Shown one piece after another: positions 40,601 through 46,600 of a stretch of DNA of 64,000 bases. Within the stretch, counting starts at the first letter, position 1, and every line of letters starts with the position of its first letter. Made by a program: the position numbers. Location of the stretch: the NCBI RefSeq assembly GCF_041248615.1, contig NZ_CP158426.1; one strand, 5' to 3'. The DNA is from Escherichia coli (GTDB taxonomy: Bacteria; Pseudomonadota; Gammaproteobacteria; Enterobacterales; Enterobacteriaceae).

Positions 40601-43600
40601 TTAATAAATAAAACACGTAAATAATGGTGATGTTGTTTTGTGATTAACTATTTAAGAGTGGCATAATAAACAAGTTGACAATTTCTATGTAAAGAAGAAG
40701 AAAATAATAAAATTTTAGCGGTGACTATTGAATGATATGATAGTTGTGGTGTTGATTATTTCTGGTAATGAATGCGGAATTAAATCTGGCCGGATTGTAT
40801 TTTTGCTATATCTATTTTTCAGGAGATTATTATTAAATATAAAAATAACAATGGTGATTATCTCCGGTTGACCTGGAGTCACGTATGCCAGCGAGTGCTT
40901 TCTTCCGGGCCTTCCTTCACTTCAGAGAAAAAGAGGCAATCATCAGGCTCTTTTTGAGTCATATGCGCCGATAATCAACTGTCTTGAACGTAAAAATTAT
41001 GGAGCAACATGATGCTACGATTCATTTCACTCTTCGTTCTTTCTGAGCATTGCGTTCAGGATGGTCAGCAATTTACGCATACTGTCAACCAGCGCCACTT
41101 TTTTGGTTTTTCCGGCTGCTGACAGATGCATGTAAAATGCCTTTATCACCGGATTAAACCAGGTTACCACAAGCGCTGCCATGTGCAGGGCTGCTCTTGC
41201 CTCCGTACGCGCACTGGCGTCGTTCGGCCAGCAGATATGTGTGGGATAACAGGGATGTTATGTGAACTGAACTGTGTTTTGTTAGCGGGGGGATGTTTAT
41301 TGATGATTCGGGAGTGTTTAAGACCTGATGGCGTTATGCTCCCAAGTTTATTTTATATAAAGATCCAAAAGCAAAAACCCGCCTTGTGGGCGGGTTCTTT
41401 AGAATAGTGGTGCCGGAATCGGAATCGAAAATTTCTTTTATCATATTGATATTAATATAATTTGTTTGGTTTGATTAAAAATGTACCCTCAATTATACCC
41501 GCAGTCCCTTTTGATATCGAAAGGGAATCACACTCGGGATCAGGCTGAGAGCACAGAAGGAAAGTACCTGGCTATTATATCGTTAATTCTGTCAATCAGT
41601 TCCAGCCTTTTGAAAGTGATGTGTGCAGATCCCTTCTTAAAGTATTTAATGATGAACATCTCGTCTTCATAGCGCTCTTTACCCTGAACGGACTGGATGT
41701 GACCATCCAGACGAATAGTGATGTTTTCCCGGTTGTCGGGGATCGGTTTGCCGCTGAACAGATGTAGCATTCTTTCCAGGTCGACGAGTCGGTCAGTCTG
41801 TTGCCCGGTGATAAGATGAAACCCCCACCGGTCCCACCTCACCAGGTTGTTGACGATAATTTTACTGCCAAATTTGCAGGGGCAATTGGTTTTGTAATTC
41901 CAGCTCAGTCCCCTGAAGACGTTGATCACCCCTCGCTCAAACACCTCATCCTTATTCTGGTGTAGTTGTTCAAATGTGATCAGAATGTTCGCTTCACTGA
42001 TTTCCGGAAAATTATCGTACTCCAGTGACCGGTACCATGTATCACGGGCCTGTGCATCCATTAAGGAAAGCATCCCTGAACGTTGCATCAGGTCACGCCA
42101 GATTTCGCGATCGAGATTGCGTGTGATGGCTTTCATTGCGGTTTCCGGTTTCTCCATCAGCCAGCAGCCGCAGCGAAAATCCTGTTTCATGGCCCAGCCC
42201 GGGGCGGCTTTACCGCCAATACTTTCTGTCATTGCTGATATTTCAGCCAGTTGCCGGATAAGTGTGTCGATTTGCAGCAGTGTACTCTTTCGTACAGCCA
42301 GAATGTGGCGGATATTGGTTGAGCAGATAACGTCCGTATGCCCGGTGACCACTTCCGGACGGGAGATTGTGATGTCTGACATTATCGGTTTCCCTTTTGG
42401 TTTATAAACGAAAACGCCAGCCCTGTTCAGGCTGACGTCAGTGGAATGAAGTATGGTGAGTGATATTTACCGGTTCTGGTGCAGAAGCTGCAGGTGACGA
42501 AGAGTACGGACATCCTCCCGGGCCTGTTCGATACAGGGCAACAGTGCTGCCGAATCCGTTTTATCCTCATCGTTGTCAAAGATAATTCCCGATTCGCAGT
42601 CGATATTGTCCTGCAGCCACGCAATGAGGATATCCAGCGCTGTTTCAGTGGTTAATGGCATCACGCTCTGTATCACTGTATTGTCTTCCGGCAACTGATG
42701 AGGGCTGGCAGAAGTCGCCGGTGTTTCGGTAGCGTCATGTTCATCCACCACGCGGAGTGAATAACCGTTTTCAGCGACTTTGTTAATCAGTTCAGCGAGC
42801 TTAATACCATCGACGTCAACGACAATGCGCCCCATGTTCAGCGCCTGCGCATTAATGCTGTCGGCTTCCAGCGTCAGGGCCAGTTTCATTGTTTCGCCTC
42901 CGGATGCTTACCCAGAGTAATGTTATTTACTGTTCGGTAATTGTCGCGGGTCATCAGGCCGGTCGCCCTGCGAGCCCGGAGGATATCGATGCTGTTTATT
43001 AACTGAGAGCGGGTACAGGCGCTGAATCCCGGCTGGTCGGTACGCACCAGCGCGTATTTTTCCACGAGAAAGTTCACCGCATCACACAGTGAAATGCCTG
43101 CCTCAATATGCTGCTCAATCACACGTTCATCAGCGAACGGTGTGTCATTCAGTGTGAGGCCGTAATGCTGGTCCAGCAGTCGGGTGAGCAGTGTATGCCA
43201 GATGGTGACGGGAGACGGGCAGCACGATGCCTCCCGTACGTGTGTGTCAGGTAATGTTTTCATCTTAAGTTCTCTGTAACTGGTAGTGCTAAAGGTGAGA
43301 TATTCGGGGTTATGAGGTGGTTGCGGGTGCCAGTGTCGGATAAACAGCCATATAAACGTAACCACAGGAGCCGAGGGTGTCGGCTTCACAGGCCAGCCCC
43401 TTCGCATACAGTGTCACGGTATGCTGATGGCGGGGATTCAGTTCACCGCTGGTGAGCATGAGCTCCAGTTGTTTCATCAGCAGCGGAAAGGCCTGGTCCA
43501 GGTGGTACGCATCTGCATCGCTGAACAGGCCTCTGATACCGGCGCGGTCGGCAAGGTAATGCAACCGGTTACCCTCCTGCACCAGACGTGCCCCGAAACA

Positions 43601-46600
43601 GGGCGTCACGGTGCAGGGCAGCCCCCACCAGGGGCGGTCGTGATTGTCGTCGGGAAGTGTTGTCCCGGGGAGTGTGTCTGACACGATAAAATCCTCACAG
43701 AAAATCGGTTAAGAATGGTCCGGTAGTGGCGATAATTCTGCTCATCAGAATGCCCTGACTCAGTTCAGGGTGACACTCATCAGGCGGACATACGGGCCAA
43801 AACTGTCCTTACGGCGTTCTGCAAATACAGCCAGCACACCGGGAATATCCTGCACTTCACGACCGGTATACGCCTCAGCACTGCCGTGCCAGCGGTATTT
43901 ACCGGTACAGAACGGAAAAAGACGGGATGTCGGATGTTGTTGGTGAATACGCATGGCTTCACCACGGGTGATGATTTTCATGGTGTGATACCTCTGAAGA
44001 CAGAAGATAAAAGTGAAAACAGGTGTGATGTGGTGGTGACGGTGACGGGTTAAAGCAGACCGTGTTCCGCAAAGGAGAAAACCTGGCTGCCACCGACTAT
44101 CAGATGGTCCGGTACCCGGATATCCACCAGGCCCAGTGCCTGTACCAGACGTTCCGTGATAAGGCGGTCTGCCTTGCTGGGTGTGACTTCACCGGACGGG
44201 TGATTGTGTGCCAGCACCACGGCAGCGGCATTGTGGTGCAGGGCGCGTTTAATCACCTCCCGGGGATGGACTTCCGTGCGGTTGATGGTGCCGGTGAAGA
44301 GGGTTTCACCGGCAATCAGCTGATTCTGGTTATTCAGATACAGCACCCGGAATTCTTCACGCTCCAGTCCCGCCATGTTCAGAATCAGCCATTCCCGTGC
44401 CGCACGGGTGGAGGTGAAGGCCACGCCGGGTTCATGAAGATGGCGGTCCAGGGTTTTCAGGGCCCGCTGAATGAGACTGCGCTCGCCGGGCGTCATTTCT
44501 CCGGGCAGAAAGGAAATCTGTTGCATTGTTCCTGCCCCCTTTCAGTCAATAATGCGCATAATGGCGTCGTATTCCGGATGTTGCAGGGCGTAATCCCGCA
44601 GCCGGTAATAATGGACCGTCATGGCATAACACTCCGTACGACAGGCATGATGACTGTACGTCATCAGACAGGCAGCAATGCCGGCGGCTTCCGGGCTCAT
44701 TTCAGCGCGGTTACTGTTCATGACATTGAACAGTACCCATGTTTCGTCATCATCGTCATCCGGTTCGGGTGCCATAAATGCCCCTCCGTTATTCAGTGTG
44801 TACAGATTCCAGATACCACCGCAGTAGTCTTCACACAGACGGTCCATCCAGCCGAAGACACGGGGCTCCAGGGTCACCCACTGTGGAATGAGGCCAAAGT
44901 GCTGTGGCCAGAAGCTGATGCACTGTTCATCAGGGACGGGAGTGGCAACCAGTTGAGACTGGTTATTCCCTGATGCAGTAGTTACGGAAACAGAAGGTGT
45001 GGTGGAATTATGTGAAACGGTTGTCATGATATTATTCCTTATAAAAAGCAAATGAATGAAGAAGGCTCGGGGGCAGGGACAGACGTGAGTCAGGACGGCG
45101 CTTTCAGGTAAACGGTATCAGCGCATGTTCTCCAGCAGCGTTTCCGCCATCACCCATAATGCGCGATTGAGCTTAATATCGGTGTCGATGCTGTGAATGG
45201 CCCGGGTATGGATACGTTTTCCTCTGGCACTGCGGCCGGAAATTCCGCCTTTCAGCATATTCTCCTGGATGGTCTGATATGCGCTCCACAGGTCCTTACC
45301 GTAATCCTCCCTGCGTCGTGGCGTAAGAATGTCAGCGGTGGTGACGGGCTGATGTTCGTCACCATAACGGTAAGTCAGGGCCGCCTGTGCCAGCGCCTGG
45401 CGTGCCGGTGGCGGCAGGACCAGCGACTGCATGGCATCACGCTTCTCCTCTATCCGGTCAAACACGCCCACCACCTCGTAAGCCCCTTCGATAACTTTCT
45501 CCACTACATTTCCCCGGTGTGGAACACGCACTTCCCCCAGAGACTGGCCACAGACGCACCCGTTCTGGCAGACGAACCTGAAGTAACCCGGCAGCATCTG
45601 GTAGCTGGAGGTACCGTCATGAGAGTTGAGCAGAATAATTTCAGGGACATGTTCTCCGTTTATCTCTCCGGCCCGCCGCAGACGCAGCATGTGTTTGGTA
45701 TATTCCCGGCGGCTCTGGTCGCGCACACGGGTCTGGCAGGCGAAGAACGGCTGAAAGCCTTCCCGCTGCAGATTTTCCAGGACGGTAATGGTGGGAATGT
45801 ACGCATACCGTTCACTGCGGGAGGTGTGCCGGTCTTCCCCAAAAATACTGGGTACATGGCGTATCAGTTCTTCATGTGTCAGCGGACGGTCACGGCGTAT
45901 CTGGTTTACATGACCAAAACGACTTGCTAATCGCATGATTTGCTCCTTATGAATGAGTTAGCGGTATAAATGAAAAAGCCGCGTCTTCTGGAGAAGACGC
46001 GGCCTGATGGATCAAGTGAATGACGTTTATTGCCTGAGAATTCCCTCACTGGCGAGATACGGATTTAGCTGTTTTCCGGCATCAGGTTCAAAATTCCAGC
46101 ACCGCCAGCGTAGCTGCCCTTCAGCATTGCGAATAACCAACCGGGAATATGTTCCCTGGTCATCTTCAGTAAACACATTGCGGTAAGCTGTTTTGACGGC
46201 AACAGCCTGTTCGCGTGAGAAAGGGCCTTCGGGCAATAAACGTGATGTACAACCCGGCATATCTGTTGCTCCCTGAAAGTAAAAAGCCCCGGTCATGATG
46301 ACCGGGGCCTGAAGGAGAGTGACCTGATTATCAGAAAGTCACATTCAGCGTGGCCTGACCGTTATAACCTTCAGCGCTGCTGCCGCTGACACTGTGGGCA
46401 TAACCGGCCTGAACGCCCAGGGTGATATTTTCCCGGACACGGGCTTCCAGTCCGGCCTGCAGGTCCAGTGACGTGCCATTCCGGGACGGTGAGAACGTCA
46501 TGTTACTGCCGGCGGCGGCTGTACCCATGCTCATGTCACCCCGGGAGCTGAAAGTGCGGATAACAGAAGGCTGTACCCACCAGTTCACCGGCAGTTCACT

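Follow-up and report, generated by a model that had tools for sequence, protein, structure and literature searches.

A CP4-44-like yee module with a CbtA/CbeA toxin-antitoxin pair lies at the attR end of a pheV island next to the kps locus in Escherichia coli

Results

Gene content and limits of the block

We analysed a 64,000-nucleotide (nt) stretch of Escherichia coli DNA (contig NZ_CP158426.1; hereafter the window) and concentrated on positions 41540-46296, which a preliminary description had taken for a CP4-44-like accessory block with CbtA/CbeA toxin-antitoxin (TA), RadC-like, antirestriction and DUF932-like genes. The block comprises nine open reading frames (ORFs), all on the minus strand and arranged head to tail with short spacers, and each was assigned to one Pfam family. 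In the direction of transcription these are a YkfF-like DUF905 gene (annotated at 46027-46260, the ORF extending to 46296; DUF905, 95 bits, E = 2.7e-27); a YfjQ/YafZ-like DUF932 gene (45118-45936, 272 amino acids, aa; DUF932, 174 bits, E = 5.8e-51); an ArdB-type antirestriction gene (44542-45027, 161 aa; Antirestrict, 120 bits, E = 7.3e-35); a YeeS-like gene for a RadC-like JAB/JAMM protein (44050-44526, 158 aa; RadC, 153 bits, E = 5.8e-45); the DUF987 gene yeeT (43760-43981, 73 aa; DUF987, 134 bits, E = 1.9e-39); cbeA (yeeU; 43310-43684, GTG start, 124 aa; CbeA_antitoxin, 181 bits, E = 5.9e-54); cbtA (yeeV; 42886-43263, 125 aa; CbtA_toxin, 209 bits, E = 1.3e-62); a yeeW-like chimeric ORF (42467-42889, 140 aa; DUF5983_N, 98 bits, residues 4-57); and a DUF4942 gene, the last gene of the island described below (41540-42382, 280 aa; DUF4942, 221 bits, E = 1.2e-65). 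The Pfam gathering cut-offs for these families are 22-27 bits, and the scores lie so far above them that chance can be excluded for the nine assignments. Every gene family named in the preliminary description was recovered in this way, with close similarity to the CbtA and CbeA families (E of 1e-62 and 6e-54), and the limits given there are the outer ORF ends, i.e. the stop codon of DUF4942 at one end and, at the other, the ATG with which the longest DUF905 ORF opens.

Over its 4757 nt the block shows 100% identity to a segment of the E. coli NRZ14408 chromosome (NZ_LT599825.1). Annotation and all features beyond the window were taken from that record, in which positions are those of the window plus 896000. 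The RefSeq genes agreed one by one with our ORF calls, plausible ribosome-binding sites precede most starts, and eight of the nine ORFs are intact. An NCBIfam scan added only the RadC assignment. Long plus-strand ORFs at 44062-44973, 45193-45930 and 41922-42407 had no Pfam match and were rejected as genes; we take them to be shadows of the minus-strand genes. A scan of the whole window at Rfam gathering thresholds, together with an E-value scan of 41300-46400, gave nothing credible within the block, and the window holds no further copy of it.

Three terminator-like hairpins, all on the minus strand and each followed by a T run, suggest three transcription units. They lie after flu at 46284-46310 (12-pair stem, 8 G-C), in the DUF905/DUF932 gap at 45976-46005 (13-pair stem, 8 G-C) and in the gap between the DUF957 gene, introduced below, and the DUF4942 gene at 42413-42439 (11-pair stem). 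DUF905, DUF932 to DUF957, and DUF4942 would then be transcribed separately. Since the first hairpin reaches into the 89-aa DUF905 ORF that starts at 46296, the 77-aa reading from the annotated start at 46260, with GGGAG 11 nt upstream, is likelier.

The block forms the attR end of a pheV island

The tRNA-Phe gene pheV (record positions 971752-971827) and an adjacent tyrosine integrase gene (970292-971554) lie 11.8 kb past the end of the window, with insertion sequence (IS) debris between, and adjoin yqgA and speC as in K-12. By analogy with the island described in PMC11537424 the integrase would be of the P4 subtype. There is no tRNA gene inside the window. On the minus strand at 41408-41429 we spotted by eye, and then confirmed by search, an imperfect 22-mer direct repeat of the pheV 3′ end, TTCGATTCCGATTCCGGCACCA, which we designate attR. 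Compared with the tRNA 3′ end, TTCGATTCCGAGTCCGGGCACCA, it carries one G-to-T change and lacks one G, so that 21 of 23 tRNA positions match. This 22-mer has a single match in the window and none in 100 shuffles; a search of the window with a 25-mer of the tRNA 3′ end, allowing up to three mismatches, gave no hit, owing to the 1-nt deletion in attR. Directly beyond attR, at 41362-41407 on the minus strand, follow 46 nt of native pheV-downstream sequence as found 3′ of pheV in K-12, cta(a)ttct(t)aagaacccgcccacaaggcgggtttttgcttttggatct, and this stub contains a terminator-like hairpin (41373-41399).

The island thus spans pheV to position 41408, about 34.4 kb, and the block is its terminal module at the attR end: 110 nt separate attR from the DUF4942 stop codon, with the integrase gene ∼34 kb off at the opposite end. 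The AT-rich 110 nt between DUF4942 and attR contain a perfect 7-bp inverted repeat, TCCCTTT-N7-AAAGGGA (∼41503-41523), a possible terminator or else an arm site for a recombinase or excisionase.

Because attR is followed by native pheV-downstream flank (41362-41429), the kps capsule locus lies outside the island and was inserted separately, in the interval from the pheV terminator to yghD. The nearest kps gene, kpsF (39245-40228), is 1.3 kb beyond the DUF4942-side end of the block. What intervenes, 40265-41361, resembles an old insertion junction of kps; it includes the C-terminal remnant of an IS110-family transposase (41027-41209) and a non-coding AT-rich stretch of ∼700 nt. The same IS110 remnant is present in strains FP4 and AH50, the latter with an extra IS4 at this place. 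The RefSeq annotation bears out the preliminary description in placing the block next to kps, on the strand that also carries flu and the YeeP-like GTPase gene. The integrative-element origin proposed there is directly borne out by pheV and its integrase, attR, and the K-12-type pheV-downstream flank. The block can therefore serve as a landmark for the attR end of the pheV island, showing the adjacent capsule locus to be a separate insertion.

This arrangement has published precedents. The genomic island GI-pheV of uropathogenic/ExPEC E. coli is modular, with 'flu' and 'yee' modules that are its richest in single-nucleotide polymorphisms (SNPs) owing to recombination; its attR is imperfect and T-substituted, and a kps locus lies at the breakpoint (PMC11537424; PLoS Genet 2024). 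Modules of RadC/ArdB, CbtA/CbeA and DUF genes have also been found to adjoin a direct repeat opposite the integrase (PMC12458937). Our island shares with GI-pheV the pheV site, an integrase (probably of P4 type) by the tRNA, the flu and yee modules, the T-substituted attR and kps beyond the breakpoint. We see no essential difference, except that the present island is short (∼34 kb) and IS-ridden, that its flu gene is disrupted by ISEc12, and that its attR lacks one G.

Relation to the K-12 elements CP4-44, CP4-57 and CP4-6

Comparison with the K-12 elements, as the preliminary description had advised, upheld its statement that order and sequences match CP4-44 (90-100% aa identity for YeeS, YeeT, CbeA and CbtA). 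The RadC-like protein is 99% identical to YeeS of CP4-44, as against 72% and 82% for its CP4-57 and CP4-6 counterparts; the corresponding values are 100%, 58% and 66% for the DUF987 protein (YeeT), 93%, 66% and 63% for the antitoxin, and 90%, 63% and 58% for the toxin. The YeeW-like segment is 75% identical to its CP4-44 counterpart over the 64 aa that they share, and has none in CP4-57 or CP4-6. Conversely, ArdB (69% to CP4-57, 66% to CP4-6) and DUF932 (74% to both) have no CP4-44 counterpart, and DUF905 has one only in CP4-6 (56%).

The likeness to CP4-44 extends to gene order, to the strand relation with yeeP-isrC-flu and to a shortened yeeW allele. The differences are mainly of content. 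Where the window has the DUF905, DUF932 and ArdB genes, K-12 has yeeR, and for this reason K-12 yeeS lacks its first 10 codons. DUF957 and DUF4942 are kept in the window but absent from K-12 CP4-44; the yeeW frame runs into DUF957 in the window but ends at a TAA stop in K-12; and the window element retains tRNA, integrase and attR. In addition, the window differs from CP4-44 by a divergent patch that covers the cbeA 3′ end and the cbtA 5′ end, where Cys replaces Arg at toxin position 15.

CP4-57 (yfjP-yfjQ ... yfjX/lfgA-yfjY/lfgB-ypjJ-yfjZ-ypjF) and CP4-6 (ykfA-yafZ ... ykfF-yafX-ykfG-ykfH-yafW-ykfI) have the order GTPase, DUF932, (DUF905), ArdB, RadC, DUF987, antitoxin, toxin in common with the window, and likewise carry the module at the end of a tRNA- or tmRNA-linked element. 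In contrast to CP4-44, they show only 56-82% aa identity to the block; they have extra genes between DUF932 and ArdB, their toxins are shorter at the C-terminus, and they lack DUF5983, DUF957 and DUF4942 genes.

Nucleotide identity to CP4-44 is 95-100% over most of 44500-43421 (83-93% around spacers), falls to 40-82% in the patch at 43420-43157 and returns to 95-100% at 43156-42917, with 68-90% in the yeeW part. The patch (43157-43420, minus strand) comprises the 3′ end of cbeA, the spacer and cbtA codons 1-36. On these alignments it is a recombination patch, and the mosaicism suggested by the preliminary description holds at this scale, in that a segment of 40-82% identity is set between segments 95-100% identical to K-12.

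The block's genes are ubiquitous in E. coli. Some part of the block was matched in 5014 of 5426 complete genomes (∼92%), and at least 80% of it in 3695, with a median of three places per genome having any; NRZ14408 has four. The combination of alleles is rare, a match of ≥ 99% being found in six records only, while in 4778 the best match was 90-95%.

The CbtA/CbeA pair

The antitoxin gene cbeA lies upstream of cbtA on the same strand, with a 46-nt spacer, and neither gene contains internal stop codons. CbtA matches its full Pfam profile (1-112) against a cut-off of 25 bits, and the cut-off for CbeA is 27 bits. Because the CbtA profile begins at the Met codon at 43263, a 173-aa ORF that reaches to 43407 is a mere upstream extension overlapping cbeA. 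CbeA also matches the YeeU structures 2INW and 2H28 (E of ∼1e-79; 2.3e-78 for 2H28), and its divergence from K-12 CbeA resides in the C-terminal tail. Given their 93% and 90% identity to the K-12 pair, CbeA and CbtA are predicted to be capable of neutralisation and toxicity, respectively. Masuda and colleagues reportedly showed in 2012 that the mechanism is of type IV, CbeA rescuing the cell by bundling FtsZ and MreB polymers without binding the toxin.

By its identity to the K-12 toxin, CbtA should block division by way of the FtsZ H6/H7 loop (PMC5624674). In K-12 CbtA the F65S substitution abolishes the interaction with FtsZ, and R15C specifically abolishes that with MreB (PMC5624674). In our alignment with CbtA, YpjF and YkfI, the FtsZ determinant F65 is invariant. 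Position 15, which falls within the divergent patch and for that reason carries Cys instead of the Arg of K-12 CbtA, lacks the MreB determinant. This determinant is particular to the K-12 allele and not to the CbtA family: Cys15 occurs naturally in YpjF and YkfI, and YpjF binds MreB nonetheless (PMC5624674). Targeting of FtsZ is thus to be expected from the conserved F65, and targeting of MreB is uncertain with Cys15. On its CP4-44-type backbone the Cys15 toxin may act on FtsZ only, in which case it would produce filaments and not lemon-shaped cells, and the allele could be of use in separating the two activities. All three K-12 pairs are toxic and neutralisable, weakly transcribed and not autoregulated (PMC5371832).

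ArdB, the RadC-like protein and the DUF genes

ArdB was nearly identical across residues 24-161 to the crystallised protein of PDB entry 2WJ9 (E = 6.5e-94), which we take to be ArdB of uropathogenic E. coli, and also matched the KlcA structure 2KMG (E = 3e-17); its Antirestrict score compares with a cut-off of 25 bits. The 2WJ9 entry is named only 'intergenic-region protein', and its number is absent from PMC2836571, which reports that the ArdB of a CFT073 island and its homologues YafX (66% aa identity to the present protein) and YfjX (69%) inhibit Type I restriction in vivo across its four families. By its near-identity to the crystallised protein, the product of 44542-45027 would probably have antirestriction activity as well.

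The RadC-like protein retains an intact metal-binding motif, HNHPSGEVTPSKAD (H-x-H-x7-S-x2-D; H107-N-H109...S117..D120), scored 149 bits against NCBIfam TIGR00608 (cut-off 134) and matched PDB entry 2QLC (E = 1.8e-25). Its CP4-57 paralogue YfjY/LfgB is a reported protease (PMC10846083), and at 72% identity to it the protein encoded here may well be one too.

Among the DUF genes, DUF932 is preceded by an AAGGAG ribosome-binding site. The DUF4942 protein had 2034 relatives at E ≤ 0.001 in an exhaustive HMMER search, mostly stand-alone proteins of 260-290 aa, but three of four scanned relatives of 460-468 aa carry a C-terminal class-I S-adenosylmethionine (SAM)-methyltransferase domain that is absent from the window protein. 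The latter also matched phrog_6263, 'DNA methyltransferase' (E = 3.6e-15). This gives no more than a lead, namely that DUF4942 might be the partner or specificity factor of a methyltransferase. The protein has no sequence homologue in the PDB, and a Foldseek search of the PDB with its confident AlphaFold2 (AF2) model (pLDDT 87.6) gave a best E of 0.28, i.e. no solved structural relative.

The yeeW-like gene is a fusion

The preliminary description had included a 'yeeW type' gene in its comparison. A yeeW-like N-terminus is indeed present, 75% identical to K-12 YeeW as noted above, but the gene is not a normal yeeW: its start overlaps the cbtA stop (ATGA), and the DUF5983 N-terminal domain continues in frame into the downstream DUF957 gene. 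Aligned with the full-length DUF5983 gene of strain AH50, the window lacks ∼275 nt, and since these include the C-terminal part of DUF5983 together with its stop codon, a fused ORF of 140 aa results. K-12 yeeW has this short allele too, with a TAA stop where the window reads CCG-GAA. RefSeq annotates a DUF5983 pseudogene (42713-42889) and a separate DUF957 gene (42467-42664), the 65-aa product of which had no match in the Pfam release used. Strain FP4 has the same truncated-gene annotation, and its DUF957, DUF4942, CbtA and CbeA proteins are identical to those of the window.

Kinship with phages and plasmids

When the 4.8-kb block was compared by blastn with 50,697 phage records, only one unannotated record of 3.2 kb and two matches of 200 nt came up, and no virion or lysis genes (capsid, tail, terminase, lysis) are annotated between pheV and attR. 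We therefore rejected phage origin as the primary reading, and 'cryptic prophage' is a historical label only for such blocks. Matches to PHROG families were obtained with seven of the nine proteins; 'anti-restriction protein' and 'DNA repair protein' are among these families.

Plasmids were searched by tblastn with DUF932, DUF4942, ArdB/KlcA and CbtA as queries. Of the 72,556 plasmid records, DUF932 was found in at least 5000 (4398 of these conjugative; homologues of 60-63% aa identity), DUF4942 in 4362 records (3997 conjugative) and ArdB/KlcA in 3016 (2070 conjugative). CbtA was rare, with 65 records, 33 of them conjugative.

Five families, namely DUF905, DUF932, ArdB/KlcA, DUF5983 and DUF4942, are common to the block and to the leading regions of conjugative IncF, IncI1 and IncK plasmids. 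An IncF leading region reads ssb, DUF905, parB-like, psiB, hok, DUF932 and then traM; a Klebsiella IncFII leading region reads N6-methylase, DUF932, DUF5983, SLT and then traM; and those of the IncK2/Z and IncI1 types contain psiB, psiA, ardA ... DUF4942, followed by nikA and nikB. The gene nearest to oriT is DUF932/DUF5983 or DUF4942, and transcription of the shared families runs toward the end of the element, which is oriT on the plasmids and attR on the island. The relationship is not close, the island families being only 32-63% identical in sequence, and unlike the plasmid leading regions the island has no annotated psiA or ParB-like gene. CbtA/CbeA is an island-specific insert among the leading-region families.

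Discussion

Collectively, the data point to the block being the 'yee module' of a GI-pheV island with a presumably P4-type integrase, i.e. its terminal accessory module at the attR end, composed of an establishment and anti-restriction set and a type IV TA pair, and we hold this reading with high confidence. The first set (the ArdB, RadC-like JAB metalloprotease, DUF905, DUF932, DUF987, DUF5983/DUF957 and DUF4942 proteins) would most likely help the element to survive on arrival in a new host, with ArdB blocking Type I restriction. Five of its seven families are also encoded in plasmid leading regions, and the shared families and polarity, by homology and by synteny in four examples, support an establishment or anti-restriction role of the non-TA genes. 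As for the second set, CbtA would bind FtsZ (in K-12 also MreB) and halt division and elongation, and CbeA would counteract it by bundling and stabilising FtsZ and MreB polymers, with no binding to the toxin; the pair is most likely an addiction or stabilisation cassette of the island.

Several observations weigh against this picture, and most of them also bear on a different one, in which the block is a functionless, decaying hitchhiker, kept by linkage to useful cargo and by recombination with paralogues. With DUF5983 truncated and fused, flu upstream interrupted by an IS and attR degenerate, the island may be immobile and parts of the module may be in decay. Relatives have frameshifts and internal stops; in AH50 the antitoxin gene is frameshifted and the full-length DUF5983 gene contains an internal stop. 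Expression of the TA loci is weak in K-12, where deletion of the antitoxins is tolerated (PMC5371832), which speaks against strong addiction, and the high SNP density of the yee module has been attributed to recombination (PMC11537424). Moreover, the annotation shows neither a relaxase gene nor ssb or psiB from pheV to attR, a stretch in which oriT was not searched for, and a Cys15 CbtA might reach only one of its two targets. A mere passenger would not, however, be expected to keep eight of nine ORFs intact with plausible ribosome-binding sites, to preserve the JAMM motif and CbtA F65, or to occur to at least 80% of its length in 3695 of 5426 genomes and at a median of three copies per genome having any; activities have also been demonstrated for homologues. 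We consider pure hitchhiking unlikely.

Two further readings were weighed against an accessory module of the island. The block might be a phage-derived 'moron' cassette, a prophage or satellite remnant that serves a phage cycle or transfer by a helper phage. The homologous K-12 regions are annotated as the cryptic prophages CP4-44, CP4-57 and CP4-6, the PHROG matches cover most of the block, the island encodes an integrase, probably of P4 type, as well as an AlpA-like regulator and a YagK/YfjJ protein resembling Rep ORF2/G2P, and a satellite-like lifestyle has been proposed for such elements (PMC12458937). But the block is nearly unmatched among phage records, capsid, tail, terminase and lysis genes are not annotated anywhere from pheV to attR, and five of the families abound in conjugative-plasmid leading regions, all of which makes a phage-serving cassette very unlikely. 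More improbable still is that the block, or CbtA/CbeA within it, is an anti-phage (abortive-infection) system carried as island cargo. TA systems often act in phage defence, and such modules occur in elements that carry defence islands (PMC12458937). Against this, the nine proteins had no match at E ≤ 0.001 among 5027 PADLOC models, on which ground a known defence system was rejected; the co-located ArdB has an anti-defence function (PMC2836571); and in the papers that we read we met no published phage-defence phenotype of CbtA/CbeA.

The terminal accessory module that we favour may be extended by a more speculative proposal, to which we give a rather low probability. On a chromosomal island, the yee module may correspond to the leading region of a conjugative plasmid: islands of the GI-pheV type would enter new hosts by conjugative mobilisation with the attR end leading, and the module would be expressed early to blunt restriction, CbtA/CbeA being an inserted addiction cassette. 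A leading-region kinship of genes that have no assigned function would bear on the spread of these very common islands.

In itself the finding matters little. The flu and yee modules of GI-pheV have been published, and the block is an instance of a known, near-ubiquitous module, an ordinary accessory constituent of ∼92% of complete E. coli genomes. What we add are refinements (the attR boundary, the DUF5983::DUF957 fusion, the Cys15 patch and the leading-region kinship) that leave its category unchanged.

Other features of the window

Upstream of the block on the minus strand lies the flu module (46331-53009), which consists of a YeeP-like GTPase gene (52137-53009; Pfam MMR_HSR1), an IsrC-type RNA and a split flu (Ag43) gene. 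The flu fragments, annotated as pseudogenes, are an ESPR signal-peptide fragment (51030-51764) and a C-terminal passenger/barrel fragment (46331-48448), and are separated by an IS21-family ISEc12 (IS genes at 48534-50836; istA 49295-50836, istB 48534-49280). The RNA (51783-52019, minus strand) matched Rfam RF00124, 'IS102 RNA', with 70 bits at a gathering threshold of 46; it lies between the GTPase gene and the flu 5′ fragment, the position of IsrC in K-12 CP4-44. A match to RF01387, 'isrC Hfq binding RNA' (150 bits), was found elsewhere, at 6423-6545 on the plus strand inside the 5′ end of an IS3-like ISEc31 copy (6391-7604), and at this place RF01387 may model an IS3-type leader and not an independent small RNA.

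The rest of the island within the window (53239-63356) is a small, IS-ridden backbone with no obvious virulence cargo. It includes a LysR regulator gene (53239-54123; cf. perR in CP4-6), hydrolase and major facilitator superfamily (MFS) transporter genes, an AlpA-like helix-turn-helix (HTH) gene (59959-60165), an Hha/YmoA gene (62376-62525) and a Rep ORF2/G2P-like YagK/YfjJ gene (62757-63356), with IS1414 from 63517 onward.

On the other side of attR, the serotype-specific region 2 of kps contains two plus-strand ORFs annotated as hypothetical (27613-31122 and 31232-32230; 1169 and 332 aa; GC content 30-34%), neither of which had a Pfam match at E ≤ 0.001. A JUMPstart element (RF01707, 54 bits; 25909-25947, plus strand) lies just upstream of a kpsM-like ATP-binding cassette (ABC) permease gene (25976-26752), where the region 3 promoter of a group 2 capsule locus would be expected. 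Farther out, IS3-family copies occupy 5303-7846 between hybG and sslE, and the sslE lipoprotein metalloprotease gene (8359-12905, plus strand), which precedes the gsp operon for type II secretion, carries a frameshift according to the annotation.

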